From the NCBI GenBank assembly GCA_943354905.1, contig CALRDL010000003.1, positions 1-63,154 of the forward strand: 63,154 nt of DNA, in the 5' to 3' direction. The DNA is from Candidatus Nomurabacteria bacterium. Its GTDB lineage: Bacteria > Patescibacteriota > Minisyncoccia > Phycocordibacterales > UBA9973. The translations under genes were made by a program, and so were the position numbers. Position 1 is the stretch's first letter. Each line of letters starts with the position of its first letter. Under the pieces are notes generated by a model, which ran no database searches, was not told the origin of the DNA, and saw nothing but the letters and a program-made list of their open reading frames with translations. Positions 939 to 27,930 of the stretch are shown here, one piece after another.

Positions 939-1343
939 TTATTTTAATTTAAAGCTAGTAATATTTTCTCTAAAGTAACTACCAAATGCTACTAACTCAA
1001 TACAATCAATATACCCGTTTTCCCCCCAGAGTAGTGTATCGCCACCAAGCTCAATATCATCTGATTCTATCTTTGGGCCATATATAGGAAACCCTTTTTT
1101 TATATCATTTTTTTTAACACCGAAACTAGAAACAACGAATTCTCTATTTGTAAAAATAGAAAAATCAATCGGTTTAAGATTGCGAGGGACCTTCAAAGTT
1201 ATATAAAAACCTACTTTAGTCCACTCTCTTTTTACAAGTTTAGCGGATTTTATCTGAGTAGTAAGGTTAAGATCTTTATAGTTTTCTATAAACCATTCTA
1301 AGATGGCTTTTTCTAGTTTGTTAAATTTAGTATCATTGTCCAT
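939..1343 (-). CDS. Putative immunity protein for toxin cassette 1
   Basis: Small ORF. Started at the internal ATG (MDNDTKFNKLEK...), it begins 16 nt after the cassette-1 stop, which is the position and size expected of a cognate immunity gene. No family recognised. Confidence 0.5.
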   Translation of the reverse strand: MDNDTKFNKLEKAILEWFIENYKDLNLTTQIKSAKLVKREWTKVGFYITLKVPRNLKPIDFSIFTNREFVVSSFGVKKNDIKKGFPIYGPKIESDDIELGGDTLLWGENGYIDCIELVAFGSYFRENITSFKLK

Positions 1344-1359
1344 AAACTTTAGATAAATT

Positions 1360-1917
1360 CTATTTAATAAACATTGTACTAAGTCGAGGAATCCCATCAA
1401 TTATTATTACTCGGGCAGTAACTATATAATTTCCAATTTTAATCGGCACGTCAGATACAATACTTTCTGGAATTTTTGAAGTAATACTATTTAATCCTTT
1501 TATAACAGCCTGTATCACATTTTCTTTACTCCCTAACTCTTTTACTAGAAGATCTAATTTATGACTTGGGTTACCGAAAATATGTATCATTTTGGTTGGA
1601 TCCTTTGTTACATAGTTCACAGCTTTATTTAATGCATCTTGAGAAAATTTCAAAGTCTGCACCGTCGGACTCTTACCAAACTTAGTAAGTATATCACTCA
1701 TTTTATAGCTTGCCCAAGTGACAGGACCGGCAATCGTTGTTATTACCACAGCTACAAATCCCACAGGACATGCAAAGTAACAAGCGACCACGCCTCCAAT
1801 TATCACCACAGTTCCGGCGATATAGGGGTGTTTCTTTACTACATTTCCTACCACCTTCCCTATCCCTACTGCCACATCTGAATGCCATGGGTTCTCATAA
1901 ATGGTGGCTGACCCCAT
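1360..1917 (-). CDS. Free-standing polymorphic-toxin-like protein (cassette 1): TM hairpin homologous to the RHS C-terminus plus an unrelated tail
   Basis: ATG at 1915-1917 is preceded by AGGAGG (reverse complement of 1930-1935, 12-nt spacing). GIGKVVGNVVKKHPYIAGTVVIIGGVVACYFACPVGFVAVVITTIAGPVTWASYKMSDILTKFG is colinear with RHS aa 1398-1468. A different tail of about 105 aa follows (IHIFGNPSHKLDLLVKELG...). Confidence 0.65.
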   Translation of the reverse strand: MGSATIYENPWHSDVAVGIGKVVGNVVKKHPYIAGTVVIIGGVVACYFACPVGFVAVVITTIAGPVTWASYKMSDILTKFGKSPTVQTLKFSQDALNKAVNYVTKDPTKMIHIFGNPSHKLDLLVKELGSKENVIQAVIKGLNSITSKIPESIVSDVPIKIGNYIVTARVIIIDGIPRLSTMFIK

Positions 1918-1985: not shown

Positions 1986-2762
1986 TTAAAATTCTACAGA
2001 GCTAATATACTCTCTAAACATTTTCACCTTCTTGCTATCTTCAGAGTTGATAAGGAAAGGTTCGATATCTTGAGCAAGGTCATTAAAATCAAGATCAGCT
2101 GTTTGTTCGAGCAGGGCCTTCTTTAGTTCATCTGCATTCTTAACACCGAGCTTTGCCTCAAGGTATGCATAATTTGGCTTTGTCTGTGGAATAAGGAAGA
2201 CGATATCAAAAAAGTCACGACCCTTTGCTCGCTTACGGTTTAGTGCCGCATAAATCTTTTGCGATAGAAGGATGTCGATAGGGGCGGTAAATATCTGAGT
2301 AAAAACATCAAACTTGTTGAGAATCTTGGTATCTTTCTTGTAGTCAAAAACCTGAGGGACCGTATCGATCTGAATCAGAATCTTTTCTTCCTGCATGTCG
2401 GACATATCATTATCAAAGAGTACCTTTGGCATCCTGATGTATGAACGATATGCACCCTTGAAAACATTTTTCATCTCTACCTCATAACCCTGGAGCTCGA
2501 GACCTTTCTTCACTTCATTTGCCAGGTCGGCGAACTGTTCTTCGGTAAGCTTGAAATTGTCAAAATCGAGATCCTCGGAGAACCTACTGTTGTTGTATAC
2601 GATTCGAAGAGTCGTGCCACCAAGGAATATGAGGTCCTGTGCATACTTTGAGTTGAAAATGATTTCAAGAATCTTGTACTGCAAATACTCTCTCAAGATA
2701 TTTCGCTTGAAAGGCTTTTGATTGTCAGGATAGTACTGTTCTATATTCTTGAGACTAAGCAT
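1986..2762 (-). CDS. AbiEii/DUF1814-type nucleotidyltransferase toxin
   Basis: 258 aa. The motif LIFLGGTTLRIVYNNSRFSEDLDFD is typical of AbiEii. It sits 2 nt downstream of an AbiEi-like gene. Confidence 0.75.
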   Translation of the reverse strand: MLSLKNIEQYYPDNQKPFKRNILREYLQYKILEIIFNSKYAQDLIFLGGTTLRIVYNNSRFSEDLDFDNFKLTEEQFADLANEVKKGLELQGYEVEMKNVFKGAYRSYIRMPKVLFDNDMSDMQEEKILIQIDTVPQVFDYKKDTKILNKFDVFTQIFTAPIDILLSQKIYAALNRKRAKGRDFFDIVFLIPQTKPNYAYLEAKLGVKNADELKKALLEQTADLDFNDLAQDIEPFLINSEDSKKVKMFREYISSVEF

Positions 2763-2764
2763 GA

Positions 2765-3388
2765 TTAGTTAATGGCTGTATTAATAAATTGTAAAAACTT
2801 CTTAGCGCGCTTTTCGAGAGCCTTGCTATGGAAAGCCTCTAGATACTTGTTGAACTTTTCCATATTTAGCCTCTCCTTTAATTCAGAAGTATTGAATCTC
2901 ATCCCTTCAAACGATTCATAGTCATTAATCTTTGAGTTAAAATATAAATAATCCAAAACAGCTTTTTCTACCTCAGCAATCTGATAATGATGACCACCAT
3001 GTTCTCTCAGATCATATCCAAACATAAGATCCGGCTGTACATGTCTGTAAATAAAGTCACCGACAGGGGTCTTTATGTTCTTTGTATTTTGAGATGTGAC
3101 TGAAGTGACTCCATATACAGCTTCAGGAATTAATCCGTAAATTGATAGGGCCATTTCAAGAGAGACGTACGAAGGCTCATAGATGCGATTGGCTATAGTA
3201 AATAGAATCTTTTCATCTATCTGTAGATCAGAAAATATATAAAAGCCTTGGCGGATCTTCTTTACATAATCCTTCTTTTGCCATTCGCTCAATCTCTGCT
3301 TATGGAACGACGAATCAACCTTTTCAATATCCTTTATTGAAAAAACTAGAAAGTCTTTTAGTTGGCTCTTTAGGTCTAAATATTGCAT
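2765..3388 (-). CDS. AbiEi-type transcriptional antitoxin
   Basis: 207 aa, directly upstream of the AbiEii-like gene. Size and gene order fit type IV TA AbiE. Confidence 0.6.
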   Translation of the reverse strand: MQYLDLKSQLKDFLVFSIKDIEKVDSSFHKQRLSEWQKKDYVKKIRQGFYIFSDLQIDEKILFTIANRIYEPSYVSLEMALSIYGLIPEAVYGVTSVTSQNTKNIKTPVGDFIYRHVQPDLMFGYDLREHGGHHYQIAEVEKAVLDYLYFNSKINDYESFEGMRFNTSELKERLNMEKFNKYLEAFHSKALEKRAKKFLQFINTAIN

Positions 3389-3548
3389 ATTATCTTCAAG
3401 TCTTCCGTTTTTTAGGAATACTTAGCGATATTATAGCATAAGCCTATTTGGACGACAACTCACTTTTACGGAGCAAGATTGTGTACAAGGATAAAGAACT
3501 TACACTAATTAATTAAGAATGTGGAAAGAAGTTTTTTCATATCGCTAC

Positions 3549-3932
3549 CTATTTATAATTTTTAAGTCGAGATTTACCTGTAATTTCAAACCCAATCAAA
3601 ACCTTACCCATAAAATTATTCCTAGCAAAATTAAACAATTCTTTTGATTCATATAATCCTTCAAAAATCTCAACATAAAATAGATCAAGAGATTTTGGGT
3701 CACTATCTGAATCTTCAAATAATTCATTAGTGAATACTATAAATTTTTTTATTATTGGATCTTTTTCACCATTATTTTCCAAAATCTTTTTAATAAAATC
3801 AGTAAAATAGCCATAAACCACATGTGGTAACTCTAGATCACTTTCAGCTCTTTTAAATTCTTCGGAATCTTTGAATTCTGGAAATCTCTTAAGCGTAATC
3901 TTTATTATATCTTCATATTTATAAGTATTCAT
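3549..3932 (-). CDS. Putative immunity protein of the main RHS toxin
   Basis: 127-aa acidic ORF starting 7 nt after the RHS stop (intergenic gap of 6 nt). No signal peptide and no recognised family. Confidence 0.5.
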   Translation of the reverse strand: MNTYKYEDIIKITLKRFPEFKDSEEFKRAESDLELPHVVYGYFTDFIKKILENNGEKDPIIKKFIVFTNELFEDSDSDPKSLDLFYVEIFEGLYESKELFNFARNNFMGKVLIGFEITGKSRLKNYK

Positions 3933-3938
3933 AAATAG

Positions 3939-6900
3939 TTATTTAATTAAACTCACAGCATTTTTAAGTTGTTTTAATAATAAATTAGCTATTTCAATAT
4001 CACTTTGAGAAAGGCCTGGGCTCATAAGAATTTTTTCTAGGCTAGTAATTCGTTCCGTTGCAGTAATTATGTGAGTTGATCCCCCAACTAATTTTCCAGT
4101 TTCAGCATAAAACTTAACAGCTCCTGCTGTACCACCAGGCAACTCATCAGTTATTTTATATAAATAACTGAAACCATCTTTAAGTTTTTGATTCTGTATT
4201 ACATTAGCAATTATTTCTCTTTCAGGTGTTGTAAGTAATTTTGTAGATGCACCATTTAAAAGTCTAGTTGCGTTTGCAATTAAACTACTCCCCACATTCC
4301 CAAACTTCGCCACTATATCAGCTATTTTAGCACTCGCCCAAGTAACCCCTGTACCAACAGTCGTAACCACACCAGCAACAAATCCTGGAGGACACCAAGC
4401 GACACAAGACGCGACACCGGCAATGACCACCACAGTGCCAGCGACATAGGGGTGTTTCTTCACTGCATTTACTACCGTGCCAACCCCTCCCATCACCACC
4501 TTCCCTATCCCTACCACCACATTCTTGATGGCAGGCACTACTGTATTCACCACAGAAGTTGGAGCTTTAGGAACAGAGACAGCTGGTTTTGCAGGAGCAT
4601 TCGTAGTCGCCACAGCTTGCTTGGTGGTGGCTACGGCGAGAGTGGTGAGGGCGTTAGATACTTTATTTACAGCCAGAGATAATACTCTGGTGGCGGTTTT
4701 ACCTAGAGCGTCGGTTACTTTCAGGGTGAAGGATGATGAAGTGATACTTGTCGATTTACCAGATAGAGTACCACCGGTTGTCAAAGATACTCCTCTCGGC
4801 AGAGAACCGCTTTCCAGAGTGACCTTATATGGTGCTTTGCCTCCTTGGATGGCAACAGATTGCGAGTAAGTCGTATTTTGCTTAGCGAAAGGGAGAGAAA
4901 TGGTACTAATAGAGAGAATTGGCGCAATTGGGATTGGAGGCGCATTAACTATCGGATTGGGAATAGTAGGTTTTTTGGGAGTTGGTTGGATAACAGGCTT
5001 ACTTAATAGTGTTGGTTTAATTATTGGCGCTGGAACTGGCTTAACCTTGACCACAGGTGCTGGTATAGATTTGATAACAGGTGCTGGAACTGGTTTAACA
5101 ATAGGCGCTGGAGATGGTTTAGGAGCTGGCGCTCTAGGTGCTGGCGCTGGTTTAGGTGCTGGCGCTGGAGCACGTCTGGGCGCTGCATGTGCGGTTTTAA
5201 TGGTAAAGAAACCAAAAATATTTTTCAGTAATTTTGAACGCATTGAGGTCTTGTCTTTGGTCTGGACTTCATCTGTTTTCTGTGAATTGGGGATAGTGGA
5301 TGGCTCCGCCACAGGGATGTTAACCGAGGATTCGTAGGTATCAGTTTTAATTAATTCGCGGTCGTCTTGATTGAGTAATTGGTAAGCTGCGTCAGCTCCA
5401 GTGTGTATTTCTATCACAGCATTAAACTGATTTTGAAGTAAGTTGTTTTTATCATCTCTTGCTTGTCGACGCTCGGATACGTCAGCGGAAACTTGAGCTG
5501 GTTGTTCCACTCTTACAGTTGAATCTTCATTGGCATAGACATTTACCAACTTAAAACCAAACCAGCCAAAAATCTTATTTTTCAACCATGAAACCGGGTC
5601 CGTGGGGTCAGTGGTAGAAGTTGGCTTATCAATCAGCCGTTGATCTTCTTGCGTCCGCTCGGGAAGAGTTGTGGATTCTTCTCCTGGCGGGGATTGATTT
5701 AAGTTTGCCGGTAGTGCTTGATGCAGAGAAGATGAGGTCGAAGTTATTGCTTCTTGCGCTTTCGCGGTTGCGTTGGCAACCAGCAGTCTTTCCACCTGCT
5801 TTTGGTTGTAAGCAATCAAGTCGTCAATTAAACTATTAGTTCTGTCAATTGCGGCCACAGTTAAATCATAAGCCAATTCTAGACGCTGACGATCCTCGTT
5901 GGTAATAACATTGGCCAGGCGGTCAACAGCATTAGCGGCTAACTGTTGTAAATCGGCAATAGTTTCGGTCGCAGAAGCCAAGATTGCACGGATAGACATA
6001 CCTTGATTTGATTTCTCTGCGGCATGGCCAGTGGGATCACTGAAATTAATCGGATCATTCAGACCATAGATGTATTCATTTTGAGTGAGTGTATTTTCCA
6101 GTTCTCCCGGTAATGGATCCTTACTGTAAAATCTTCCAAGGGCGGGGTCATAGGCCCGAGGTCCGAGGAGATAAAGTTGTGCTTCCTGGTCATAGAAATA
6201 TCCAGCATAAAGAAAATCCGAATATATGGAATTATCAAGAGATGATTTCTGAGCGCCAAATTCATCATAGGAGAATTTGGCGACGATGTTTGAGTTATCA
6301 TCCACCAGAGCGACAATGGAGTTATGGCTATCGCGAGTTACGGTATAGACTTTTTTGTCTACCGCCATAGCGATTATTTTTCCTTTGGCGTCATAGAAAT
6401 ACTGGCGGATAATTTTTCCACTGCCATCTTTGACTGTGGTCATATTTTGGCCGTCATAAGTGAAGTTCAGAGTGTTGTTGCTCGTTTCTCTTTTTATCCT
6501 GCGATGCAGAGAATCTAGAGTGTATGAAATCACTTTGCCATCTGGTAGGATGATAGAATTTATATATCCAAATGCGTCATAGCCGTACCCTGTCTCGCTC
6601 TTGGTGTCGCCTTTGATATCTGTTTTCTTCACCAGTTGGCCAGCCTTGTCGTGTTCATAAATTGTCGCTGATCCGTCCGGATATACTGTCCTGGTTAGCT
6701 GATTGCCATCATATTCGTAAGTGATGCGGCCAGAAACACCTTCCTTCACCATTCGATTGCCCCGTTCATTATGGGTATAGCTGGTGATTACACCAGTGCT
6801 GTCAGTCACTTTACTCAATTGATTTGACTCATCATAAGTAAATTTGTTCTTTTGGCCAAAACTATCCGAGCGGGAAGAATATTGTTTACTGGATGTATAA

Positions 6901-8702
6901 GCGTAATTCACCGAGTAAATATCGACGCCAGCACGCGAAATAACTCGTAACCCCAGAGGACTATCGCTAGAATCATAGTCATAAAATGTTTCCTCGCCCT
7001 TTTGATTCACCGAAGAACGGAGTACTCCCAGAGAATCGTAAGTGTTTTTTACTTCAATCTTCTTTTGAACCTTTTTGACTTTGGTCTCCGGTTTGACTGG
7101 TGCCTCTAAAGTCTCTTTGGGTGGAGGAGGTAGTTCTAGTATGTTTATCTCGGGAGCGGGAATGAAAACTTCTGCAGATTCGGCGCTAGTTTCACCTTCG
7201 GCAAAAGCGTAGGATAGATTCCTCTCCCAGATTCCAATCAATTTATTTTGCAGCCAAGAGATTGGACCACTCACAGTTTCGGGCGCTTCTTTTATTTCTG
7301 TTTTTGCTTCCTCTACTATTACTTCTTTCACTTCTGTCTTTACTTCCGTCTTTACTTCTGTCGTCGTTTCCTCTACTTTTGTCTTTGTTCTTTCTTCCTT
7401 TACTTCTTCTGCTATCGTTTCCTTTACTTCTACCTTCACTTCCGTCTTTACTTCTGCTTTCACTTCTTCTACTGTCACTTCCTCTTCAAACGGCAAGGTA
7501 ATGGAAAGACCGCTCGGGTTATTATTTTTGTCATATGAAACTTTTGTCTCTTGGGTGACGGAAGAAGTATTAGCAAAGGCGATCAACTTGGCGCCTCGGT
7601 ACAGAGAGGCCACTTTTGACTTTATTTTTCTAAAAATGGAGTGAAAAAGAGAAACACTACCCATCTCCTTGGTGGAGTTGTCTCTTTCTATAACTTCTGA
7701 CTTTTTCTCTACCATAGCGCTTTTCTCTAAAATCTTCGTTCCAATCACACTGCCCAATTCATCATACTGATACTGAATCTCATTATCATCGTCATTGAAC
7801 TGCCCTACTAGGTTACCAGCCTCATCATATTGAAATCTTGTTTCGCTGTCATTTGTGGCGATGCGTTCTATCTCCCCGCCCTCGGAATAGGCAAGGTTTA
7901 CTTGTTTGGCACTTTCGTCGGCAAAAGCAAAGTTTAAGAGAGGATATATAGTACGTTCCAAAAAGGAAAGCTTGCTGGTGTCCACTGGCCTTTCCACATA
8001 CATACTGGTAAGTCGGCCCTTGGCATCATAGGCATAGTAAGTGATACTGCCATCGGGTTTGGTAATCTTGATGGGCTCGCCAGCCTCGTTGTATTCAGCC
8101 AGGGTGGCATTACCCCTCTCGTCTGCTACAATAATCGGCCGGTCCTCTTCATTGAGAGTGATTTTCTCTATTTCGCTTTTGGTATCCGTGATGATAAGAG
8201 TATTGTTCTGTTCGTTGTAAACCACCCCGTCGTATTTATCCGCTAGCTTCACACCTAGAGTGGCTGGGGCGGATGCTCCGCCTCCTTCACCCCAAGTGGA
8301 AGTTTGTGCTTGAGCTATTTCTTTGTTTTCCTGATTTTCTGTCTGGGCGACTTCCTCATTCTTTTCTGTAATTTTTTCCGCTATTTCTTCAAAATTTTCT
8401 TTGACTGCTTCTAAAAGACCGGCCGGGGTTTCAGTTTTTAGTTTAAGGGCCGCATTTTTTAATACTTTTTTAGACTTTTGAGCGATGGTACTTTCTGCAG
8501 TTCTATCTTTATCTTTATTTGCGTATTCTGAAAGATATCTCTGTTTGGCATTTTCTTTCTTAAAAACGGTTTCCCGGCCAGAGAAGTCTAGGAATTCAGG
8601 GATTAGCGGTTGGAGAGGAGCGAAGATCATTATGAAAATAACCAGCCCAGAGATAAAATTGGGTAGTAATTTACTCCATTTATATTTATTCTTTTTTTTC
8701 AT
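3939..8702 (-). CDS. Membrane-anchored RHS/YD-repeat polymorphic toxin with a long post-core C-terminal extension
   Basis: N-terminal TM (LVIFIMIFAPL). Many YD repeats (YDAKGRLTS, YQYDELGSV, FTYDESNQLSKVTD, YEYDGNQLTRTVYPDGS, YEHDKAGQLVKKTD). RHS core end YDPALGRFYSKDP...YIYGLNDPINFSDPTGH, with the DPTGH codons at nt 6024-6038. This is followed by about 695 aa: a helical region, a PAPAPKP linker, a He_PIG-like Ig domain, two TM helices and a tail. Confidence 0.85.
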   Translation of the reverse strand: MKKKNKYKWSKLLPNFISGLVIFIMIFAPLQPLIPEFLDFSGRETVFKKENAKQRYLSEYANKDKDRTAESTIAQKSKKVLKNAALKLKTETPAGLLEAVKENFEEIAEKITEKNEEVAQTENQENKEIAQAQTSTWGEGGGASAPATLGVKLADKYDGVVYNEQNNTLIITDTKSEIEKITLNEEDRPIIVADERGNATLAEYNEAGEPIKITKPDGSITYYAYDAKGRLTSMYVERPVDTSKLSFLERTIYPLLNFAFADESAKQVNLAYSEGGEIERIATNDSETRFQYDEAGNLVGQFNDDDNEIQYQYDELGSVIGTKILEKSAMVEKKSEVIERDNSTKEMGSVSLFHSIFRKIKSKVASLYRGAKLIAFANTSSVTQETKVSYDKNNNPSGLSITLPFEEEVTVEEVKAEVKTEVKVEVKETIAEEVKEERTKTKVEETTTEVKTEVKTEVKEVIVEEAKTEIKEAPETVSGPISWLQNKLIGIWERNLSYAFAEGETSAESAEVFIPAPEINILELPPPPKETLEAPVKPETKVKKVQKKIEVKNTYDSLGVLRSSVNQKGEETFYDYDSSDSPLGLRVISRAGVDIYSVNYAYTSSKQYSSRSDSFGQKNKFTYDESNQLSKVTDSTGVITSYTHNERGNRMVKEGVSGRITYEYDGNQLTRTVYPDGSATIYEHDKAGQLVKKTDIKGDTKSETGYGYDAFGYINSIILPDGKVISYTLDSLHRRIKRETSNNTLNFTYDGQNMTTVKDGSGKIIRQYFYDAKGKIIAMAVDKKVYTVTRDSHNSIVALVDDNSNIVAKFSYDEFGAQKSSLDNSIYSDFLYAGYFYDQEAQLYLLGPRAYDPALGRFYSKDPLPGELENTLTQNEYIYGLNDPINFSDPTGHAAEKSNQGMSIRAILASATETIADLQQLAANAVDRLANVITNEDRQRLELAYDLTVAAIDRTNSLIDDLIAYNQKQVERLLVANATAKAQEAITSTSSSLHQALPANLNQSPPGEESTTLPERTQEDQRLIDKPTSTTDPTDPVSWLKNKIFGWFGFKLVNVYANEDSTVRVEQPAQVSADVSERRQARDDKNNLLQNQFNAVIEIHTGADAAYQLLNQDDRELIKTDTYESSVNIPVAEPSTIPNSQKTDEVQTKDKTSMRSKLLKNIFGFFTIKTAHAAPRRAPAPAPKPAPAPRAPAPKPSPAPIVKPVPAPVIKSIPAPVVKVKPVPAPIIKPTLLSKPVIQPTPKKPTIPNPIVNAPPIPIAPILSISTISLPFAKQNTTYSQSVAIQGGKAPYKVTLESGSLPRGVSLTTGGTLSGKSTSITSSSFTLKVTDALGKTATRVLSLAVNKVSNALTTLAVATTKQAVATTNAPAKPAVSVPKAPTSVVNTVVPAIKNVVVGIGKVVMGGVGTVVNAVKKHPYVAGTVVVIAGVASCVAWCPPGFVAGVVTTVGTGVTWASAKIADIVAKFGNVGSSLIANATRLLNGASTKLLTTPEREIIANVIQNQKLKDGFSYLYKITDELPGGTAGAVKFYAETGKLVGGSTHIITATERITSLEKILMSPGLSQSDIEIANLLLKQLKNAVSLIK
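7293..7490 (-). repeat. In-frame tandem E/V/K/T-rich repeat inside the RHS gene
   Basis: The DNA shows reiterated cttctgtcttta/cttccgtcttta-type units. The protein reads EEVKAEVKTEVKVEVKE...TEVKTEVKTEVKE (aa 405-470). Confidence 0.8.
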
Positions 8703-8730
8703 TTATATACTGATGAGTAATAATACAAAA

Positions 8731-8758
8731 GCCACCCGGACTAGAGGTGGCTTTTTTT
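8731..8758. terminator. GC-rich hairpin with flanking A/T runs between tatD and the RHS gene
   Basis: gccacc-cggactaga-ggtggc, followed by T7 on the plus strand and preceded by A4. It could terminate the tatD transcript on the minus strand. Confidence 0.4.
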
Positions 8759-19162: not shown

Positions 19163-19800
19163 TAAAATTCTTCTTCTTTGCCTATTTCTAAATTTTTGAA
19201 ACTAATACCCAATTCTTTCAAGAAATTTTCTGGATTTTTCCAGATGAATGATGCCCAACTATGAATAAAACCATCGTGCACAGGAAAAACTATTCTTGGA
19301 TTAATATTTTTTGCATAATTAATCGCCTCCCCTATTTTCATCCACGGACCAGCCGTAGGAAGAGCGAGAATATCCACATCATGATCTGGGTAGTTAAAAG
19401 CATCTCCGGCATAGCACAAATTATCTATCATATAACCTGTATTCTGAACCTGTTTCATTGTGATATAAGTTTCTGCATGCAAATTACCAAAACCCACAAT
19501 CTGTACATCTTTAAAATCGTACTTCTGTCCCTCCTCTACTTTTGTATATTTAATATTTATTTCATCAAGTATTTTTCCAACAGCAGTATTTGTTATTATT
19601 GTGGCAGTAGGGTTATTTTCTAAAACTATCTTCAATGAGTCTATGTGCAAGTGATCAGGATGTTCATGAGTAATCAAAACTAGATCAATGTTCTTTTCTT
19701 CATTTTGTAGAGTTGAAAAAGAACCAGGATCAGTCATAACCCTCACCCCTATTTTAGGCTCCACCACAAAACAACAATGCCCAAGCTTTTTAATCTTCAT
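19162..19800 (-). CDS. MBL-fold metallo-hydrolase
   Basis: ITHEHPDHLH motif. ATGA overlap with the ileS stop. Confidence 0.8.
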   Translation of the reverse strand: MKIKKLGHCCFVVEPKIGVRVMTDPGSFSTLQNEEKNIDLVLITHEHPDHLHIDSLKIVLENNPTATIITNTAVGKILDEINIKYTKVEEGQKYDFKDVQIVGFGNLHAETYITMKQVQNTGYMIDNLCYAGDAFNYPDHDVDILALPTAGPWMKIGEAINYAKNINPRIVFPVHDGFIHSWASFIWKNPENFLKELGISFKNLEIGKEEEF

Positions 19801-22800
19801 ATTTTTATTTTAGCAATTTCTACTTTGAATACCAAATTGTCTACTTTAACTTCCTGCCCGCCATTACCTTTGAATTCTATTTTAGAAACTAGAACAGTTT
19901 TTTTCATATCTGCTTCAAATTTTTGAATCAATTCTTTGCCTTTTCCATCGGTTTCAAAAGAAATAGACACTATTTCACTCGGAGTCAATCCGAAATTCTT
20001 TCGCATATCTTGCAAAGCTCGCACAAGCTCGCGATAATTTCCTTCTTGTTTTAATTCAAAAGTTATTTCATCATCAAGCAAGACTTTTGATTCAAGATTT
20101 TTATTTTCTTTAACTTCTTTTACATTTAATTCGTCTTTAATTAGTTCTATGTATTCTATGCCTAGTGAAAAATCTTTTATTTCTAATTTGGAAAGTGGTT
20201 GACGAACGGCTATTTTAGCTTTTTGTCTAGCTTCGAGACCTAGAGAAACGACATCTCTCACAATCTGCATATTTTTCAATATTGCGTCTTCTTTGTGGCC
20301 AAAAATATCAAAAATACTTTTTGATATTTTTGGCCACTCTGCCAAGTGCACACTCTGTGTGTCACTTTCATTTTTTAATTTCAACCAAATATCCTCAGCA
20401 GTAAATGGAGCAAATGGAGCAAATAATTTTGCAAGAGTTTTCAAAACAAAATACAAAGTTTGTTTTGCCTCTACGTCTCCTTCTTTGATTCTTTCACGAG
20501 AACGACGCAGATACCAAGTCGAAAGATCTCCAATAAAATCTCGTACCGCACGAACTGGTTCGAGAAGTTTATAACTATCCAAATTTTCGGTAGAAATTTT
20601 TATAAGTTCATTTAGTCTAGCCACAATCCAAGCATCTAAAATGTTTTCTGACTTTTTATATTCCAACTTTTCTAATTCTTGATCTCGATATAATTCATAA
20701 AACGCCAAGACGTTATAAAGCAAGCTAAAAACTTGCTGTTGAAGAAGAGAGACAGTTTTCTCATCAAAGTTTTTTGATTCACCGGGTTGATTCACAGAAT
20801 ACATCCAGAGACGTAAAGTGTCGACACCATATTTATTCATCATCTCCCAAGGATCAACAATATTTCCTATGGATTTAGACATTTTCTTGCCTTGAGCATC
20901 AAGCAAATGCCCAAGACAAATCACATTTTTATACGCCTTTCCTCGACCAACAAGCACTCCAATCGCATGCAAAGTGTAGAACCAGCCACGAGTTTGGTCT
21001 ATAGCTTCTGAGATAAAATCCGCGGGAAAACCCGACCCATCTACCCATTTTTTATTTTCAAAAGGATAATGATCCTGAGCAAAAGGCATACAACCAGAAT
21101 CAAACCAGACATCCATCACTTCTTTTGTGCGGGTCATATCGCCACCACAACTACACTCTAAATTAATTTCATCAATAAATGGTTTGTGTAAATCTAATTC
21201 GTATTCAACATTATGTGGAAGGGGAATAAATTCATGTTCTCGGTGAAGTTCTCCTGTTTTATTTTTTATTTTCGAATGGAAAATTTCTAAAGAGCGAGCT
21301 TTATCAGCACCTTCAATCACGGCTGGAATTAATTCCAACGACAAACCATGCGAAACAATCAAAATAGTTTCATTTTTATATTTTTGATCGATATCATACA
21401 AAAATTCTCCAAAACGTCTCTTACCATCTTGAAAACTCTCCCCTCCTGGAATTTTAGTATCGAAAGTCCAAGTCTTACCCTCCATAAAATCCCAATAGTC
21501 TTGCACCGGACGTTCTCCGAATTCTCCAAATTCAAGTTCGTGTAGACGTTCATCAATAATGATATTTTCTTTTGGAAATCCTATTTTTTCTGCCACTATA
21601 TCTGCCGTTTCACGAGTTCGTAAAAATGGGGAACAGAAAATTTGAGTTATTTTTTCCTGCCTGCGCAGGCAGGTATTTTTCAAATGTTCCACAGTCTCGT
21701 GCACTTGCGATTTACCTTTTTCTGTCAAGTGATTTTTATTCCGATCGGAAGAATAAATATTTTTAGCATTATTTTCAGCTTCCCCATGACGCATCACGAA
21801 ATATTTATTTTTAGATTTCTTTGATTTATTTTTTAAATCTTCCAAACTTCCTACTACATGTCTCTTCTCGCACTTGCCGCAAATCCAAACAGGTAGTGGA
21901 GTTCCCCAATATCTCTCACGCGATATAGCCCAATCTTTTATTTCACGTAGCCATTCGCCAAAACGCCCATCTCGGATGTATGCTGGCTCCCAATTGATCG
22001 TCTTATTTTCTTCGATCATTTCTTTTTTTATTTTCGGATCCGACATACGGATATACCAAGAATCACGCGCATAGTATATGAGCGCAGTTTTGCAACGCCA
22101 ACAATGCGGGTAGCTATGTTTATAATTTTCTTGTTTAAAAAATAAATTTCGCTTTTTTAGATCTTCGATGATGTCTAGAGCTAGGGTTGGCTTACCCGGC
22201 CCACCAACAATACCGCCATCAACTTCTTTAACAAATCTACCTTCTAAAAATCCAGTGCCCGATAAAAATTTTCCATCAAGGCCGACGAGATGGTGTTTTG
22301 GTAAACCAACCTCTGTGCCTAACACAAAATCGTCCTGTCCATACATAACAGCTGTATGCACGATTCCCGTACCATCGGTAGTATTCACAAAATTTGCAGT
22401 ATAGACTTTATAAGCCTTATCCATTTTTGTTTTTTCACTTTCAGAAATAGTCTCTGCGAGATACGGAAAAAGTGGTTCGTATTCTAGCCCGACTAGATCT
22501 TTACCCTTAAATTCTGAAATTAATTCATAATTTTCTAGTAGAGATAATTTAGATTTTGCAAGAATATACACACCTCCAGACGATCTATAAATTCCATGGT
22601 CTTGTGGGGCATTTAAAACGACCACTATCTTTTCTCTTACTTTTACATAATCTATATCTTCCCCCACAGCCAAAGCAACATTCCCCGGCAATGTCCATGG
22701 TGTCGTCGTCCACGCAAGAATGTAAGTATTATCTTGTCCTTTTAATTTGAATTTAACATAAACCGATAAATCTTTCACATCTTCATATCCCTGAGCGAGT

Positions 22801-23384
22801 TCATGACTAGACAAAGCCGTCCCACATCTCGGACACCAAGGCACAACTTTATAATCTTTATACAAAAGTTTTTGTTCGTCGATTTTTTTTACCACACTCC
22901 AAAGAGATTCAATATAGTCGTTATGATAAGTAACATAAGCATTTTCTTGATCAGCCCAATATCCCATTCTTTGAGTAAAATCTTTCCATAAATCTATAAA
23001 TTCCCAAACACTGTCTTTGCAAAGTTTATTAAAAGCGGCTATGCCATAATTCTCGATATCATTTTTTGACTTAAAGCCAAGTTTTTTTTCTATTTGTAAT
23101 TCCACCGGAAGTCCGTGTGTATCCCAACCACCCTTCCTGTGTGCATGGAAGCCTTGCATAGTTTTGTATCTAGGTATTACATCTTTAAAAGAAAACGGCA
23201 CCATGGTGTGAAGAACCGGTTTAGAATTTGCTGTAACCGGTCCATCGTAAAAAACAAATTCCTTACCGCCCTCACGATTTTTAACTGATTTCTTAAAAAT
23301 TTTATTCTCACGCCAAAATTCCAAAACACGCTCTTCTCGAAGAGCTACCTCACTTTTGTTATTTTTTACATTTTCGTCTTGCAT
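19797..23384 (-). CDS. ileS: Isoleucyl-tRNA synthetase (type 2-like) with an inserted histidine-phosphatase domain
   Basis: KMSKS (GKKMSKSIGN), WCPRCGTAL, WAISRERYWGTPLP and DVWFDSG motifs. The likely start is MQDENVK at 23384. Aa 541-735 form a PGAM-like insert (MRHGEAENN...CSPFLRTRETA...IVSHG). Confidence 0.9.
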   Translation of the reverse strand: MQDENVKNNKSEVALREERVLEFWRENKIFKKSVKNREGGKEFVFYDGPVTANSKPVLHTMVPFSFKDVIPRYKTMQGFHAHRKGGWDTHGLPVELQIEKKLGFKSKNDIENYGIAAFNKLCKDSVWEFIDLWKDFTQRMGYWADQENAYVTYHNDYIESLWSVVKKIDEQKLLYKDYKVVPWCPRCGTALSSHELAQGYEDVKDLSVYVKFKLKGQDNTYILAWTTTPWTLPGNVALAVGEDIDYVKVREKIVVVLNAPQDHGIYRSSGGVYILAKSKLSLLENYELISEFKGKDLVGLEYEPLFPYLAETISESEKTKMDKAYKVYTANFVNTTDGTGIVHTAVMYGQDDFVLGTEVGLPKHHLVGLDGKFLSGTGFLEGRFVKEVDGGIVGGPGKPTLALDIIEDLKKRNLFFKQENYKHSYPHCWRCKTALIYYARDSWYIRMSDPKIKKEMIEENKTINWEPAYIRDGRFGEWLREIKDWAISRERYWGTPLPVWICGKCEKRHVVGSLEDLKNKSKKSKNKYFVMRHGEAENNAKNIYSSDRNKNHLTEKGKSQVHETVEHLKNTCLRRQEKITQIFCSPFLRTRETADIVAEKIGFPKENIIIDERLHELEFGEFGERPVQDYWDFMEGKTWTFDTKIPGGESFQDGKRRFGEFLYDIDQKYKNETILIVSHGLSLELIPAVIEGADKARSLEIFHSKIKNKTGELHREHEFIPLPHNVEYELDLHKPFIDEINLECSCGGDMTRTKEVMDVWFDSGCMPFAQDHYPFENKKWVDGSGFPADFISEAIDQTRGWFYTLHAIGVLVGRGKAYKNVICLGHLLDAQGKKMSKSIGNIVDPWEMMNKYGVDTLRLWMYSVNQPGESKNFDEKTVSLLQQQVFSLLYNVLAFYELYRDQELEKLEYKKSENILDAWIVARLNELIKISTENLDSYKLLEPVRAVRDFIGDLSTWYLRRSRERIKEGDVEAKQTLYFVLKTLAKLFAPFAPFTAEDIWLKLKNESDTQSVHLAEWPKISKSIFDIFGHKEDAILKNMQIVRDVVSLGLEARQKAKIAVRQPLSKLEIKDFSLGIEYIELIKDELNVKEVKENKNLESKVLLDDEITFELKQEGNYRELVRALQDMRKNFGLTPSEIVSISFETDGKGKELIQKFEADMKKTVLVSKIEFKGNGGQEVKVDNLVFKVEIAKIKI
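21656..21677. repeat. GC-rich palindromic element, family B (cctgcctgcgcaggcagg+tatt) inside ileS
   Basis: Perfect 18-nt palindrome. The identical 22-mer recurs at 34393-34414. Confidence 0.9.
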
Positions 23385-23406
23385 GTTTTTATAAATTTTT
23401 ATAAAT

Positions 23407-23590
23407 AAAAAAAACCCGTCCACATACAACAATAATAAAATTGTTATACAAGGACGAGTTTTTGACCCGTGGTACCACCTTTGTTACTTCTCATTTAATG
23501 GGTTCTACTTTCGACTAGGTCTTGCCTAGCGATTTCTTCCCGAAGCATGCCCACCATATTGGAGGACTCAGGAGTGATAACTCCTTCAAC
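23407..23590 (-). promoter_or_regulatory. T-box leader (tRNA-sensing riboswitch) of ileS with an intrinsic terminator
   Basis: The minus strand reads AACAAAGGUGGUACCACGG (reverse complement of 23467-23482), close to the T-box consensus. A long terminator hairpin with U8 follows (23407-23458). An upstream hairpin AGGAGU-UAUC-ACUCCU (23570-23585) contains an Ile AUC codon. Confidence 0.6.
23512..23531. repeat. Family C hairpin (stem-agg tcttg cct-stem) inside the T-box leader
   Basis: cgactagg-tcttg-cctagcg. Confidence 0.6.
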
Positions 23591-23930: not shown

Positions 23931-25325
23931 CTATTTTTTCTTTCCGGACACCTTTCCTCCAAAAGATGTTACAAAATCATCATGCATTTTTTTGAGTTCG
24001 GTTGTGGAAAGTTTACCGAACACGACCTGCGCCTCTTCTGAATTTTTTTTAAAATAAATATCTTTTTCTAAAATTTCGGGATGAACTTTGAATGCATGGT
24101 CATTAATACCGAGTAGATAAAGTCCAGAAAGTCTCCGTACCCGAGAAAGAGCTACATATCCCTGACCAAATTCAAAGACTTGTGAGAGATCCATCACGGC
24201 AGCATCTAGACTCATACCCTGACTCTTGTGGACGGTCATAGCCCAAGCCAAGCGAAGAGGAATCTGGGTGATCTGGGCTCGACTCTTTCCATTTTCTTCC
24301 ACACTCCAATCCATAGGTGCCACAGTAATGCTGTAACCATTTTTGGTTTTAATTACTGGGTGACCACTAAATTCATCAAACTCAGTCACAACACCAAGTG
24401 TACCATTCACAAATCTTTCTTTTTGATTATTTTTAGTACACATAACCACTGCTCCAATTTTTAATTCTAAATTTTCTGGTGACAGACATCCTTTTTTTAA
24501 AGTCTCAATCATTTTTTCATTACCATCTCCCGACATTTGAAAACATTTCACTTCATCTTCGAGTTTAGCAAGCTCGGTATTGTTCACTCGATCTACATCC
24601 AAATTATGCGAATATAGTTTGGTAATATTTTCCGGCATATCGCCCCAATCTATTTGTCTTTCTTTTATATGTTTAAAATGTTTTTCAGAAATATTATTAC
24701 TCCGAATAGCCGAAAGAACTGAGAGAAGATCCTTGTCATCTTGGCGATGCTGTTCAGACAAATAACACACCACAAACCTAGCCCTGTCCCAAGCTCCGCT
24801 ATTGTATGCAAAATTCCCCACAAGTCCGACTTGTGGGATAAGTGAATTTTGTTTTTCACTATATTCCTTCTCTCTAAAATCTTTTTTAACAATCGGTGGT
24901 AATTGAAAAAAATCTCCAACAAGAACAACTTGCATCCCGCCAAAGGCTTCGCTTTTTTGTTTTATTTCTCGACAAACTAGATCAACCATATCCAGCATGC
25001 CATGAGAAAGCATAGAAACTTCATCAATAATTAAAACTTTTGTGCGATTAACTCTCTTTACAATATATTCACTGCTAGCAATTTTATCTAGATCGTATTT
25101 ATCTAATTTATTTTTTATTCCAATACCACTCCACGAATGGATAGTCATACCCCCGATATGGGTAGCAGCAATACCAGTCGAAGCTGTTACAGCTAAATCT
25201 ATATCACGATCACGCAAATAATTCACCAAATTATTTATCGTGTGAGTTTTCCCAGCACCGGGTTCACCAGTCAAGAAAACATTCGCACCAGTTTTTAAAA
25301 TGTTCAAAGCTTGCTCTTGAGTCAT
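23931..25325 (-). CDS. PIF1/RecD-like superfamily 1 DNA helicase
   Basis: Walker A FLTGEPGAGKTH, LIIDEVSM and VHKSQG motifs. Confidence 0.8.
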   Translation of the reverse strand: MTQEQALNILKTGANVFLTGEPGAGKTHTINNLVNYLRDRDIDLAVTASTGIAATHIGGMTIHSWSGIGIKNKLDKYDLDKIASSEYIVKRVNRTKVLIIDEVSMLSHGMLDMVDLVCREIKQKSEAFGGMQVVLVGDFFQLPPIVKKDFREKEYSEKQNSLIPQVGLVGNFAYNSGAWDRARFVVCYLSEQHRQDDKDLLSVLSAIRSNNISEKHFKHIKERQIDWGDMPENITKLYSHNLDVDRVNNTELAKLEDEVKCFQMSGDGNEKMIETLKKGCLSPENLELKIGAVVMCTKNNQKERFVNGTLGVVTEFDEFSGHPVIKTKNGYSITVAPMDWSVEENGKSRAQITQIPLRLAWAMTVHKSQGMSLDAAVMDLSQVFEFGQGYVALSRVRRLSGLYLLGINDHAFKVHPEILEKDIYFKKNSEEAQVVFGKLSTTELKKMHDDFVTSFGGKVSGKKK

Positions 25326-25338
25326 GTAACATATATTA

Positions 25339-27015
25339 CTACATTTTCTCCGGTGACTCTATTCCAAGAAGATGTAGGCCTTTTTTCATTACAAAAGTAA
25401 AAGCAAATGTAAGAGCCACAAAGTAACCAGAATTTTTATCTTCTTTATTTACTATGACATTGTTGCCATAAAAGCTATTGAAAGATCTTGCAATTTCGAT
25501 CAAATAATTTGCTATATAGTGGGGTTCATATTCACGTACTCCTCGTTCTACAACCTCCGGGAATCTATATAAAAGTTTTTCTATTTCAAATATTTCAGTA
25601 GAATCAGAATGTGGATCTGGTAAAATATTTTCCTTAGTTGCTCTCTCCAAGACTGACCTCGCTCGAGCATAAGAGTATTGTAAGTATGGACCAGAGTCAC
25701 CTTCGAAAGAAATCGAAGTTTCAAAATCATAAGCAATATCTCCCACAGTAGATTGTTTTAAAATGGAATATTTAATAGCTGAAACTCCGACTTGCTGTGA
25801 AATTTTCTTCTTGAAATCTTCATCCCAATCACGATCTTTCACTTTTTCGGAAACCAGAGCGATAGTGTCATTGATAAGCAATTCACCAGTCACAATATTT
25901 CCTTTTCGGGAACCCATTTTTCCAGTTGCAAAACGCATCATACCATGGGTTATGTGTTTCATCTTATCTGTGTATTCTGGATAGATAAGATAAATAGCTT
26001 TAGTGACGACACGCATATAGTCGAGTTGTTCATTTGCTGTGACAACAACAGAAAGATTCATATCGGGTTTTATTTTAAATTTTTCTACTGTAAGTCCTAG
26101 TTCTTTGGTCTCATAAGTCGGCAAGTCTTGTGAAGTTATAAAAACCCGAGTATGAAGTTTCGGCTGATTTTCTTTGTTATATTCTTCAGCTTTGAAAACT
26201 ATCGCCCCTTCTGATTCTTGAAATATTTTTTTATTTTCTTTAACTATCTCTAAACCAAAATCGGCAACTTTACTTTCTAAAAAATAATAGTCAAACTTTG
26301 TCCCCAGCAATTTATAAAAATCCTCAAATGCCTCCATAGTCACTTTGAATCCCCAGTCGTAGATAGAATTTATTTTGTCATCACTTCGATGATATATTTT
26401 TTTATTTATTTCATCGATTTCTTTCTTGGCTTCAGGATTATCTTCGTAAGCTCCTGCACCAAAGACATAGGCATTGCCTATGTTGCTCGCCTGCACATCG
26501 TGAGATCCTACTTGCTCTTGTAAATTTTCATTTTTCAAAAGTCCGTATATAGCTCTAGCCACATGAAGCCCGACATCACCTTGATAATTTGCCCTGAAAA
26601 CTTCTGCGCCAGAAACCTCTAAAATTCTAGCGACTGATTCACCGATAGTATTCGTCATTAGATGTCCGATGTGAAATGGCTTGAAAGGATTTGGGTCAGT
26701 ATATTCCACCATTATTTTCTTTCCAAGATATAAATTATTCTTTCCAAAATTCTTATTATTTAAAATCTCTTCAACACTCCCATGAAAAAATTTGGGTGAT
26801 AAATAGAAATTTATAAATCTTCCTGCCACTTCTATTTTTCCGATTTGTTCTCGCAAATCGCCCTGAGCTTGTCGAAGGGTCTCAGCATCTTTCTCTGCGT
26901 TTTCTGGAGACACAACAAAAGCGTAGTCGCCATTTTTTATATCTTTTGGATGCATCAAAACAACATCCTTGATATCTAAAATTTCCTTTATCCAATTTTT
27001 AATTTTATTTTGCAT
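25339..27015 (-). CDS. argS: Arginyl-tRNA synthetase
   Basis: DPNPFKPFHIGHLM (HIGH), a C-terminal anticodon-binding region and a terminal M. The start is taken at MQNKIKNW. Confidence 0.9.
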   Translation of the reverse strand: MQNKIKNWIKEILDIKDVVLMHPKDIKNGDYAFVVSPENAEKDAETLRQAQGDLREQIGKIEVAGRFINFYLSPKFFHGSVEEILNNKNFGKNNLYLGKKIMVEYTDPNPFKPFHIGHLMTNTIGESVARILEVSGAEVFRANYQGDVGLHVARAIYGLLKNENLQEQVGSHDVQASNIGNAYVFGAGAYEDNPEAKKEIDEINKKIYHRSDDKINSIYDWGFKVTMEAFEDFYKLLGTKFDYYFLESKVADFGLEIVKENKKIFQESEGAIVFKAEEYNKENQPKLHTRVFITSQDLPTYETKELGLTVEKFKIKPDMNLSVVVTANEQLDYMRVVTKAIYLIYPEYTDKMKHITHGMMRFATGKMGSRKGNIVTGELLINDTIALVSEKVKDRDWDEDFKKKISQQVGVSAIKYSILKQSTVGDIAYDFETSISFEGDSGPYLQYSYARARSVLERATKENILPDPHSDSTEIFEIEKLLYRFPEVVERGVREYEPHYIANYLIEIARSFNSFYGNNVIVNKEDKNSGYFVALTFAFTFVMKKGLHLLGIESPEKM

Positions 27016-27445
27016 TTGATTTAGAGCCAGTCGAACCAAACCCCCCTCGGCTACTAGAATCCATAGTATCAGTTTCTATCCATTCTGCAATTTCTATTTT
27101 TATAAAAACACCTTGTCCAAGTCTTTCACCTTTTTCAACTTTTACATCTTCATTTGTTAAATTATAAACTTGTAATAATATCTCATCTGTTTCTCCGCAA
27201 TAATCATTGTCTATATATCCAGTACTAACCAAAAGTCCTTTCTTTTTCAAAGTACTTGATCTGTCCTTGATTTCAAGCATATAGCCCTTTGGCGTAGCAA
27301 TGATGACATTTGTCGGCAAACGCTCCAAGGTTTTCGGAGGAATACTGACATCCACCCGAGAATATAAATCAAAAGCCACAGCTCCACTGGTCTGGTATTC
27401 TGGTAAAGGCAATGTCTTATCTATGCGTTTAATTTTTATTTTCAT
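27005..27445 (-). CDS. dut: dUTP diphosphatase
   Basis: GAVAFDLYS, GYIDNDYCGE and the C-terminal RGGFGSTG motif. Confidence 0.85.
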   Translation of the reverse strand: MKIKIKRIDKTLPLPEYQTSGAVAFDLYSRVDVSIPPKTLERLPTNVIIATPKGYMLEIKDRSSTLKKKGLLVSTGYIDNDYCGETDEILLQVYNLTNEDVKVEKGERLGQGVFIKIEIAEWIETDTMDSSSRGGFGSTGSKSNAK

Positions 27446-27446
27446 A

Positions 27447-27929
27447 TTATTTGAATAAATCGTAATATTTTTTAAAACCCGATACAAACATCTCGGGTTG
27501 TTCTTTTAAAAGTTTTTCTAGTTCATTTTTTGTGAACCATTTAATACTTTCAACTTCTTCGTCTTGTTTCTTGAATGGATAGTCGTGATCAATGCTGGCA
27601 ATAAACCATTGACCGAAAAATTCATGACTTGCCGACGCCCTAATTTTAGGACCTGCAATAGGTTTTAGTCCAATCAATCCTATTTCTTCTTCGGCTTCTT
27701 TTATTATATTTGATTCATAAGTCTCTCCTTCCTCTACCGTTCCCGCCGCAGAAGGTCCCCACAAACCAGGACTTTTTTTCTTACGAAATGACCTTTGAGC
27801 AAGCAAGACATTACCTTCTCTATCTTTCAACCAAAGACCAGTAATCCGTGAAATATCTTTTGGATTTTTTCCCTCTCGCTCTTTATATCCTATTATCTCA
27901 TCCTGCTCATTTACAATTGGAATTTTCAT
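27447..27929 (-). CDS. NUDIX hydrolase
   Basis: GTVEEGETYESNIIKEAEEEIGL Nudix box. Confidence 0.8.
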   Translation of the reverse strand: MKIPIVNEQDEIIGYKEREGKNPKDISRITGLWLKDREGNVLLAQRSFRKKKSPGLWGPSAAGTVEEGETYESNIIKEAEEEIGLIGLKPIAGPKIRASASHEFFGQWFIASIDHDYPFKKQDEEVESIKWFTKNELEKLLKEQPEMFVSGFKKYYDLFK

Positions 27930-27930
27930 A

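Follow-up and report, generated by a model that had tools for sequence, protein, structure and literature searches.

How might a toxin of the RHS type reach its target when far more polypeptide follows its self-cleavage site than the known RHS shells could hold? RHS and other YD-repeat proteins are thought to cage an unfolded toxin, and recent structural work has argued that the cavity limits bacterial cargo to ~15 to 40 kDa, with domains outside the shell being found only in the metazoan teneurins. The question is raised by a gene on the minus strand of a 63,154-nucleotide (nt) stretch of the Candidatus Nomurabacteria contig CALRDL010000003.1, the whole of which we call the window; the gene encodes an RHS polymorphic toxin of 1587 amino acids (aa), of which 694 residues (73.2 kDa) follow the Rhs core. 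The analysis showed that this is an RHS gene with an ordinary swappable toxin/immunity cassette, and that its unusual part is the ~500 extra residues lying between the self-cleavage site and the toxin. The reading that we favor, to which we give a probability of about one half, is that of a Sec-exported RHS toxin with a swappable cassette, whose self-cleaved 73-kDa fragment would lie mostly outside the shell and would use the ~500 extra residues as a delivery arm.

The gene is a single uninterrupted open reading frame (ORF), as taken from the ORF list and its translation. An earlier interpretation made from the letters of the DNA alone (the sequence-only reading) had allowed for an assembly error or a frameshift that would make the region after position 6024 a separate gene. 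A 5262-bp contig that was assembled separately (ENA, ERZ27280224) matches window positions 3449-8710 with 100% identity, covers the entire RHS gene and the downstream immunity gene, and yields the same 1587-aa product, which makes a frameshift or a chimeric assembly unlikely. All the parts that the sequence-only reading had named beyond the core are present where it had placed them, in this one ORF. The gene and its stretch from the Rhs core to the residues before the toxin module are laid out as follows.

3939..8702, minus strand: whole RHS polymorphic-toxin gene, 1587 aa, with an identical product on the separate ENA contig
6024..6269, minus strand: Rhs-associated core with the autoproteolysis motif (aa 812-893; R849, D862, and D889, ending in DPTGH), matched by TIGR03696
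5703..6023, minus strand: helical segment after the core (aa 894-1000), from an AlphaFold2 (AF2) model
5175..5702, minus strand: polar orphan region without homologues (aa 1001-1176), with the second copy of a short motif and the signal-peptide-like MRSKLLKNIFGFFTIKTAHA (aa 1153-1173)
4914..5174, minus strand: basic proline-rich spacer (aa 1177-1263; 34% Pro, pI 12)
4665..4913, minus strand: He_PIG Ig-like domain (aa 1264-1346), matched by PF05345
4521..4664, minus strand: linker rich in Ala, Thr, Val, and Pro (aa 1347-1394), assigned by composition

The size of the post-core region carries the argument. The 694 residues counted agree with the ~695 given beforehand and would occupy ~88,500 Å3. 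The published cavities measure ~25,000 Å3 in the Rhs core (~1060 aa) of type VI secretion systems (T6SS), whose largest Rhs toxins are 38 kDa, ~37,000 Å3 in the Tc BC component, and ~44,000 Å3 in BiTLP; the C-terminal domains (CTDs) of TLPs average 15 kDa, which the authors of that work interpreted as a limit set by the cavity. The volume check therefore upheld the claim that the region is too large to be shell cargo (~88,500 Å3 versus 25,000-44,000 Å3), and a closed cocoon around everything that follows the core is not to be expected here, on grounds of size only (73 kDa versus cargo of at most 38 kDa). The same contrast was seen against relatives. In ~80 RHS-linked copies of the same toxin, drawn from sets that are partly redundant, 116-391 aa follow the core (median, ~200), versus 694 in the window protein, which is the sole outlier among them. 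By source, the distance from DPxG to the C terminus was 120-272 aa in 38 library proteins and 391 aa in one more, 154-259 aa at 16 genome loci, and 116-234 aa at 22 metagenome loci; three further metagenome loci, checked by eye, were also canonical. A literature search found no published RHS protein with Ig or proline-rich domains after the core. What is unusual here is the Ig- and proline-bearing insertion of ~500 aa after the core, the toxin/immunity cassette being ordinary.

The part of the protein that could form a shell lies before and within the core and comprises the following segments, together with the N-terminal region that precedes them.

8568..8702, minus strand: basic and hydrophobic N-terminal segment (aa 1-45), a putative Sec signal peptide or uncleaved signal-anchor, from the Kyte-Doolittle profile
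8238..8567, minus strand: charged, probably helical stalk (aa 46-155; grand average of hydropathy, -0.90) without a Pfam domain
7698..8237, minus strand: first YD-repeat block (aa 156-335), from Pfam RHS_repeat and TIGR01643, with the best stretch at aa 204-234
7047..7697, minus strand: low-complexity insertion of 217 aa within the YD repeats (aa 336-552), with EVKTEVK repeats, the first copy of the short motif, and a PPPP stretch
6270..7046, minus strand: second YD-repeat block (aa 553-811), from NF041261 RHS_core (stretch aa 548-781) and Foldseek

The basic N terminus (MKKKNKYK) is followed by a Kyte-Doolittle peak of 2.2-2.6 at aa 9-40, and the protein is probably Sec exported, with its N terminus as a membrane anchor. 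The YD repeats were recognized by Pfam RHS_repeat (PF05593; E=4e-28, 8 stretches) and by TIGR01643 (E=6e-24), and an AF2 model of aa 150-1000, built with an alignment of RHS proteins (A3), matched the shells of Rhs proteins, TcC, and teneurins in Foldseek (E=1e-20 to 1e-14); multiple repeats and a shell fold (Foldseek E down to 2e-20) together identify a YD-repeat RHS protein. The structural match covers 350-480 columns aligned to Rhs cores, TcC, TLP, and teneurins, with a target-normalised TM-score of ~0.24 for cores of ~1000 residues. The YD part and the core add up to only ~520 residues, split by the 217-aa insert; a normal shell is more than twice as large, the YD region corresponding to ~40% of an Rhs core. 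Within this part, the AF2 model shows beta-hairpins of low confidence in the first YD block, predicted local distance difference test (pLDDT) values below 50 over most of the insertion, and values above 90 from aa ~620 in the second block, with a confident model at aa 620-889 only. The insertion has tandem-like DNA repeats (families D1 and D3), and a MAFFT alignment shows canonical RHS proteins continuing from one side of it to the other. A second half that might complete the cocoon was not found: SpvB, TcdB_mid, and beta-propeller domains are absent from the RHS protein by Pfam, no TcB-like partner gene occurs among the window ORFs scanned, and FN-plug, NHL, ABD, and Tox-GHH gave no Pfam match in the protein. 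Neither Pfam nor NCBIfam detected cell-wall-binding repeats or a wall-binding domain of the WapA type, and the hydrophobic, basic N terminus is present.

The core itself appears complete. NCBIfam Rhs_assc_core (TIGR03696) covers aa 812-893 (E=2.4e-17), and the motif DPTGH occupies aa 889-893 (nt 6038-6024). In alignment A3, R849, D889, and G892 are invariant and D862 is nearly so, and the catalytic spacing R-13-D-27-D is comparable to that of R2103/D2116/D2140 in BiTLP. Because R849, D862, and D889 are conserved, the core is predicted to cleave its own chain at DPTG/H. Since the ~88,500 Å3 of the post-core region exceeds the known cavities and the YD part is under-sized, the piece released by this cut cannot be encapsulated as a whole, and most of it must lie outside whatever shell forms; this is an argument from size and not from a structure.

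The insertion at aa 894-1394 is built of distinct parts. AF2 placed two long helices at aa 903-930 and 935-996 (pLDDT, 73-81), in agreement with the helical segment that had been proposed at aa ~900-1000. Between these helices and the proline-rich spacer lies a polar region of ~175 aa (aa 1001-1176), which the earlier interpretation had not mentioned. It contains the second of two copies of a basic, W/F-rich motif of ~27 aa (P.SWL.NK..G...): copy 1 (aa 480-506; nt 7185-7265, minus strand) lies in the insert within the YD repeats, and copy 2 (aa 1036-1062; nt 5517-5597, minus strand) lies after the core. The likeness of the two copies is significant (Smith-Waterman score of 51 versus 25.9 ± 3.4 in 500 shuffles), and each ends in an AxA-like tripeptide and resembles the true N terminus of the protein. 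A candidate third copy (5184-5246, minus strand), signal-peptide-like from Met1153 onward, was statistically unsupported and was set aside. The spacer that follows had been described as TonB-like; its richness in proline and its basic character were borne out, while the TonB identity was not, since it rested on composition alone and Pfam detected no TonB C-terminal domain in the RHS protein. Its DNA consists of degenerate repeats (families D2 and D5). The proposed Ig segment, in turn, passed the profile check as a full He_PIG domain (PF05345; E=1.1e-8, 35.8 bits versus a gathering cut-off of 24, profile positions 4-96 of 96), and BLASTP aligned it to He_PIG repeats of two unrelated proteins (P0001 and P0002) at up to 45% identity (E=9e-16 for P0001).

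Apart from the Ig domain, no homologue of the insertion was detectable in the protein collections or the JGI metagenomes. A word-index search with aa 894-1172 found nothing, with the whole post-core region as query the same kind of search gave no matches beyond those to He_PIG or low-complexity sequence, and a search of the GTDB genomes with the complete 1587-aa protein found no relative carrying the same insertion.

Beyond the insertion lie the modules that the protein shares with its relatives, and downstream of the gene lie their partners.

4293..4520, minus strand: constant hydrophobic pre-toxin module (aa 1395-1470) with Gly-rich segments, HPYVAGT, and CVAWC-PPG; region of recombination homology
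3942..4292, minus strand: swappable C-terminal toxin domain (aa 1471-1587), all-alpha, with an invariant GG...H (G1523, G1524, and H1544)
3549..3932, minus strand: cognate immunity candidate, a soluble DUF7674 protein of 127 aa (PF24722, E=3e-6)
1360..1917, minus strand: orphan cassette, a 185-aa ORF with the hairpin homology region and a different C-terminal domain of ~105 aa (same sequence as P0013)
939..1343, minus strand: candidate immunity gene of the orphan cassette, beginning MDNDTKFNKLEK and placed directly after the orphan stop codon

The sequence-only reading had seen a hairpin of two transmembrane (TM) helices before the tail and had judged it too membrane-embedded for a shell cargo. 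The hydrophobic segments are there, with Kyte-Doolittle peaks at aa 1395-1414 (1.67) and aa 1417-1446 (1.97), while the two-helix hairpin (a term we keep for convenience) remains putative, as the module consists of two to three Gly/Val-rich stretches around the CVAWC-PPG turn. The judgment on cargo did not hold. The pattern of HP..TG, a Gly/Ala-rich stretch, and CxxxC is shared by P0009, P0010, P0014, P0015, P0017, and L023, and in canonical RHS, SpvB-RHS, and TcB-like relatives, including members of the Candidate Phyla Radiation (CPR), the HP..TG..CxxxC segment and the toxin directly follow the core as a cargo of normal size. Hydrophobic or pore-forming cargo is moreover known from YD shells, being described for Tse5, and a CTD with a predicted TM region is enclosed in the shell of BiTLP. 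Because hairpin and toxin directly follow the core in the ~80 relatives, the hairpin is, by this comparison, normal RHS cargo and not evidence of a new topology. The pre-toxin domain PT-TG (PF14449) gave no match in the RHS protein at E<=1.

The module also marks the point at which tails are exchanged. At nt ~4290 (aa ~1470) the G+C content drops from ~0.5-0.55 to 0.25-0.35, and the hairpin has a G+C content of 0.46 at third codon positions, compared with 0.13 for the toxin and 0.16 for the immunity gene. The orphan cassette, 2 kb downstream of the RHS gene, has a first part of ~80 aa that is 63% identical to the hairpin (~76% at the nt level), and this homology ends at "KFG", exactly at the compositional break. 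The orphan homology stopping there identifies the hairpin, as judged by alignment, as the constant pre-toxin region and recombination junction, and the hydrophobic HP..TG..CxxxC segment is, on the same comparison, a conserved junction of this kind. It is well supported that the tail has been swapped by recombination within the hydrophobic pre-toxin segment, with only aa ~1471-1587 and the immunity gene being exchanged. The variable tail that had been proposed is thus present, as the G+C break and 363 homologues attest, but it starts only at aa ~1471 (nt ~4290), the hairpin belonging to the constant part. The ORF at 939..1343 matched no family, and its putative immunity role follows from its position. 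Between the immunity gene of the RHS toxin and the orphan cassette lies a gene for an AbiEii nucleotidyltransferase toxin (1986-3388, minus strand; PF08843, E=1.4e-19), and a 207-aa ORF upstream of it could be its AbiEi partner.

The toxin domain itself belongs to a widespread family. An exhaustive phmmer search with aa 1385-1587 (E<=1e-3) found 363 proteins of 80 to 2300 aa, in which the match is always C terminal and of which the long ones are RHS, SpvB-RHS, or TcdB-like proteins; a word-index search with the tail alone had given one match, so that the exhaustive search was required. The conserved unit is ~100 aa long (N.KL+N.F..LY...D..PGGTAGA......TG.L.GGS.H..K), with two Gly residues and the His invariant in the alignment of these proteins (A1), and from that alignment AF2 confidently predicted an all-alpha fold, with pLDDT values above 95 across aa ~1475-1587. 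Searches of the PDB by sequence and by fold yielded no significant match, and Pfam, NCBIfam, and a member-wise Pfam scan assigned no family. The DUF7674 gene starts 6 nt downstream of the toxin gene; its PF24722 score is close to the threshold (27.7 bits versus a cut-off of 27), and stronger scores were obtained for the corresponding proteins in L003, L012, and L023. A scan of GTDB genomes with a closer alignment set (A4) found toxin loci in Acidobacteriota, Gemmatimonadota, Gammaproteobacteria, Elusimicrobia, and three CPR metagenome-assembled genomes (MAGs), and a DUF7674-like ORF directly follows the toxin at 16 of the 21 loci; the closest toxin relative found in genomes (50% identity) is from a Ca. 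Parcubacteria MAG. In a metagenomic orphan cassette (L002), with 18 of 22 residues identical, such an ORF likewise lies directly downstream of the toxin domain. These data make the DUF7674 protein a well-supported candidate for the immunity partner that would neutralize the toxin, the two forming a conserved toxin/immunity pair whose family is undescribed; our literature search found nothing on DUF7674. A variable C-terminal toxin, an adjacent candidate immunity gene, and an orphan cassette are together what is expected of a polymorphic toxin.

The candidate immunity protein being soluble implies a cytoplasmic target for the toxin. For the same reason, and because it is the tail and not the hairpin that is exchanged, the hairpin is more likely to be a translocation or pre-toxin element for a toxin acting in the cytoplasm than the toxic moiety. 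A CPR locus, in a Ca. Magasanikbacteria MAG (L023; 6135-8243, plus strand), encodes a 702-aa protein that lacks RHS sequences and carries the same toxin, followed by a DUF7674 gene. Besides the toxin, it has a signal peptide, a spacer of Pro, Ser, and Thr, long repeats of helical character, and a hydrophobic segment with CxxC. By joining signal peptide, spacer, hydrophobic segment, and toxin in the absence of RHS, this protein indicates that the toxin module also works on exposed, Sec-secreted scaffolds, and it lends indirect support to the speculative step, given below, in which the hydrophobic segment takes the toxin across the target membrane.

We therefore consider the following sequence of events, of which the later steps are speculative. 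The Rhs core would cut the chain at DPTG/H and yield a 73-kDa C-terminal fragment. Most of this fragment would lie outside the under-sized, interrupted YD shell, a topology previously known from metazoan teneurins and not from bacterial RHS toxins. The helices might tether the fragment to the shell or the core, the basic proline-rich rod might span the envelope, and the He_PIG Ig domain might bind the target surface. The hydrophobic segment could then insert into the target membrane and carry the toxin to the cytoplasm, where the soluble immunity protein must meet it. In effect, the fragment would behave as colicins or the C-terminal regions of CdiA do, with the self-cleaving module of an RHS protein releasing or presenting it. 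A putative role of the insertion as a stalk or adhesin, or as a presenter, is plausible. More tentative is the stronger proposal of a teneurin-like bacterial RHS protein, in which an anchored, self-cleaving YD module does not cage the toxin and the 73-kDa colicin-like fragment is presented or released outside the shell.

The main alternative to delivery by an external arm is an evolutionary accident: an RHS gene would recently have been joined, in frame, to at least one downstream gene for a Sec-secreted protein, such that the extension has no dedicated delivery role and the protein may be impaired or decaying. On this account, aa 1153-1587 would be a former stand-alone toxin with its own signal peptide, proline-rich spacer, Ig domain, hairpin, and toxin; from M1153 onward the architecture indeed parallels that of the non-RHS Sec toxin of L023. 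The internal motifs that resemble signal peptides, one of which begins with Met1153, have AxA-like tripeptides at their ends, the duplicated 27-aa motif is significant, aa 894-1172 have no homologues, and the architecture is unique among the ~80 relatives, all of which would fit such a history. However, 694 codons have stayed open in frame and are identical in the separate assembly, the He_PIG domain and the toxin are intact, and, to judge from its intact immunity gene and its orphan cassette, the locus is being actively maintained. Upstream of M1153 there is no Shine-Dalgarno or promoter-like site, although this is not decisive, as no obvious Shine-Dalgarno sequence precedes the annotated start either. 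(Separately, a strong terminator-like hairpin with an 11-bp stem and a T run lies at 8727-8755, minus strand, only ~25 nt upstream of the RHS start codon.) A fusion origin would in any case be compatible with a present function, and we regard an accident without such function as possible but somewhat doubtful. Several points nevertheless weigh against the delivery arm. The architecture is known from a single example, as the same insertion is absent from the GTDB genomes, JGI metagenomes, and protein collections searched, so that the comparison gives no sign of its conservation and hence of selection for it. The region at aa 1001-1176 is of low complexity and might be a mere linker, and past gene fusion, of which the signal-peptide-like motifs are suggestive, need not have been adaptive. 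In addition, the first YD block and the insertion lie outside any structure or confident model.

Canonical encapsulation, in which only hairpin and toxin (19.9 kDa) are threaded back into the shell, or in which aa 894-1394 are removed by a second processing step, with delivery as in WapA, appears unlikely. Hairpin and toxin alone have a typical cargo size and are the cargo in canonical relatives, and AxA-like sites flank the inserted segments. Against this, the polypeptide emerges from the core at aa 893, within the shell, and another 500 residues pass before the cargo module is reached, which makes such a path topologically unlikely; we know of no RHS protein that re-imports a distal domain. 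The YD region is also less than half of a normal shell, and Pfam detected no peptidase domain in the protein. Least probable, and by a very low estimate, is an artefact in which a mis-assembly or a hidden frameshift joins an RHS gene to unrelated sequence. The G+C content is heterogeneous along the gene and the insertion is orphan sequence without homologues, as a chimera might show, but the ORF is uninterrupted, the separate ENA contig reproduces the whole gene with its immunity gene, and the G+C break coincides with the expected recombination junction that is shared with the orphan cassette. We accordingly retain the externally placed delivery arm as the preferred reading. If it is correct, YD/core modules would not be confined to caging and could also present a fragment that they cleave off themselves; it would also bear on how the Sec-dependent RHS toxins of monoderm bacteria reach the cytoplasm of their targets. 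The more tentative, teneurin-like version would amount to encapsulation-independent RHS delivery in a small-genome, possibly CPR, bacterium, and the external C-terminal domains of metazoan teneurins would then have a prokaryotic precedent. A by-product of the analysis is an all-alpha toxin family that is widespread and unannotated, with DUF7674 as its candidate immunity family.

Elsewhere in the window, the gene content includes many aminoacyl-tRNA synthetases, ComEC (34972-36435), a type IV pilus ATPase, pilin-like proteins, and nucleotide salvage functions. Such a content is compatible with a CPR origin of the window, as is the Ca. Parcubacteria MAG (50% identity) as the source of the nearest toxin relative found in genomes. 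An isoleucyl-tRNA synthetase-like protein of 1211 aa (19797-23432, minus strand) has a histidine-phosphatase domain (His_Phos_1) inserted at aa 545-714. The stretch at 41289-49701 may be a type IV pilus cluster, as suggested by pilin-like ORFs with N-terminal GFTLVET motifs (starting at 41289 and 42619) in the vicinity of a type II/IV secretion ATPase (47950-49701). No tRNA, rRNA, or Rfam families were found in the 63-kb window, and all the window proteins that were looked up were singletons at 90% clustering, suggesting a poorly sampled lineage.

Among the closest known systems are the Sec-dependent, cell-surface RHS toxins of the WapA type from monoderm bacteria. WapA of Bacillus subtilis and the WapA-like proteins of Streptococcus suis have an N-terminal export signal in place of linkage to PAAR, VgrG, or TcA, and combine YD repeats, an Rhs core with DPxG, a polymorphic C-terminal toxin, an adjacent immunity gene, and orphan cassettes. 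The window protein resembles them in its export-signal-like N terminus, YD/DPxG core, swappable toxin, candidate immunity gene, and orphan cassette; it differs in that no wall-binding repeats were detected, in having a far shorter YD region, into which the 217-aa insert breaks, and in the ~500 extra residues, including an Ig domain, between core and toxin. Also close are Tc BC-type RHS proteins of CPR bacteria, from Ca. Parcubacteria (L003, 1999 aa) and Patescibacteria (L012, 1824 aa), which share the toxin, the hydrophobic pre-toxin segment, and the DUF7674 neighbor, whereas their N-terminal halves are of the SpvB, FG-GAP, or TcdB_midN kind and only 173-190 aa follow the core, without an Ig or proline-rich insertion. 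The best structural matches, BiTLP (PDB 9ifo), RhsA, Rhs1, Tse5, Tse15, and the Rhs protein of S. bongori, have the same YD shell and aspartyl autoprotease core; in BiTLP and the T6SS Rhs proteins, however, CTDs of 15-38 kDa are fully enclosed by shells of ~1000 residues, in contrast to 73 kDa and ~520 YD/core residues here.

Metazoan teneurins offer the precedent for an external position, as their uncleaved C terminus exits the shell and folded domains after the core lie outside it. Teneurins are type II membrane proteins, and the window protein is like them in its apparent N-terminal hydrophobic anchor, with the teneurin shell as a top Foldseek match. The external post-core location is described for teneurins, whereas for the window protein it follows from size only. 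Teneurins lack the autoproteolytic DPxG dyad, while R/D/D is intact here, and none of the teneurin FN-plug, NHL propeller, ABD, and Tox-GHH was detected. Taken as marks of a teneurin or BiTLP, the FN-plug, the NHL beta-propeller, and a full YD shell of ~900 residues are thus lacking, and the structural match is to part of a shell. With regard to function, the modular order of receptor binding, translocation, and toxin is that of CdiA C-terminal regions and colicins. The window protein shows no sequence or fold relationship to these, and no FHA, VENN, or colicin domains were found in it; by analogy, though, its spacer, putative binding domain, membrane-active segment, and swappable toxin with a soluble immunity protein may follow a comparable order, in this case downstream of an RHS self-cleaving module.

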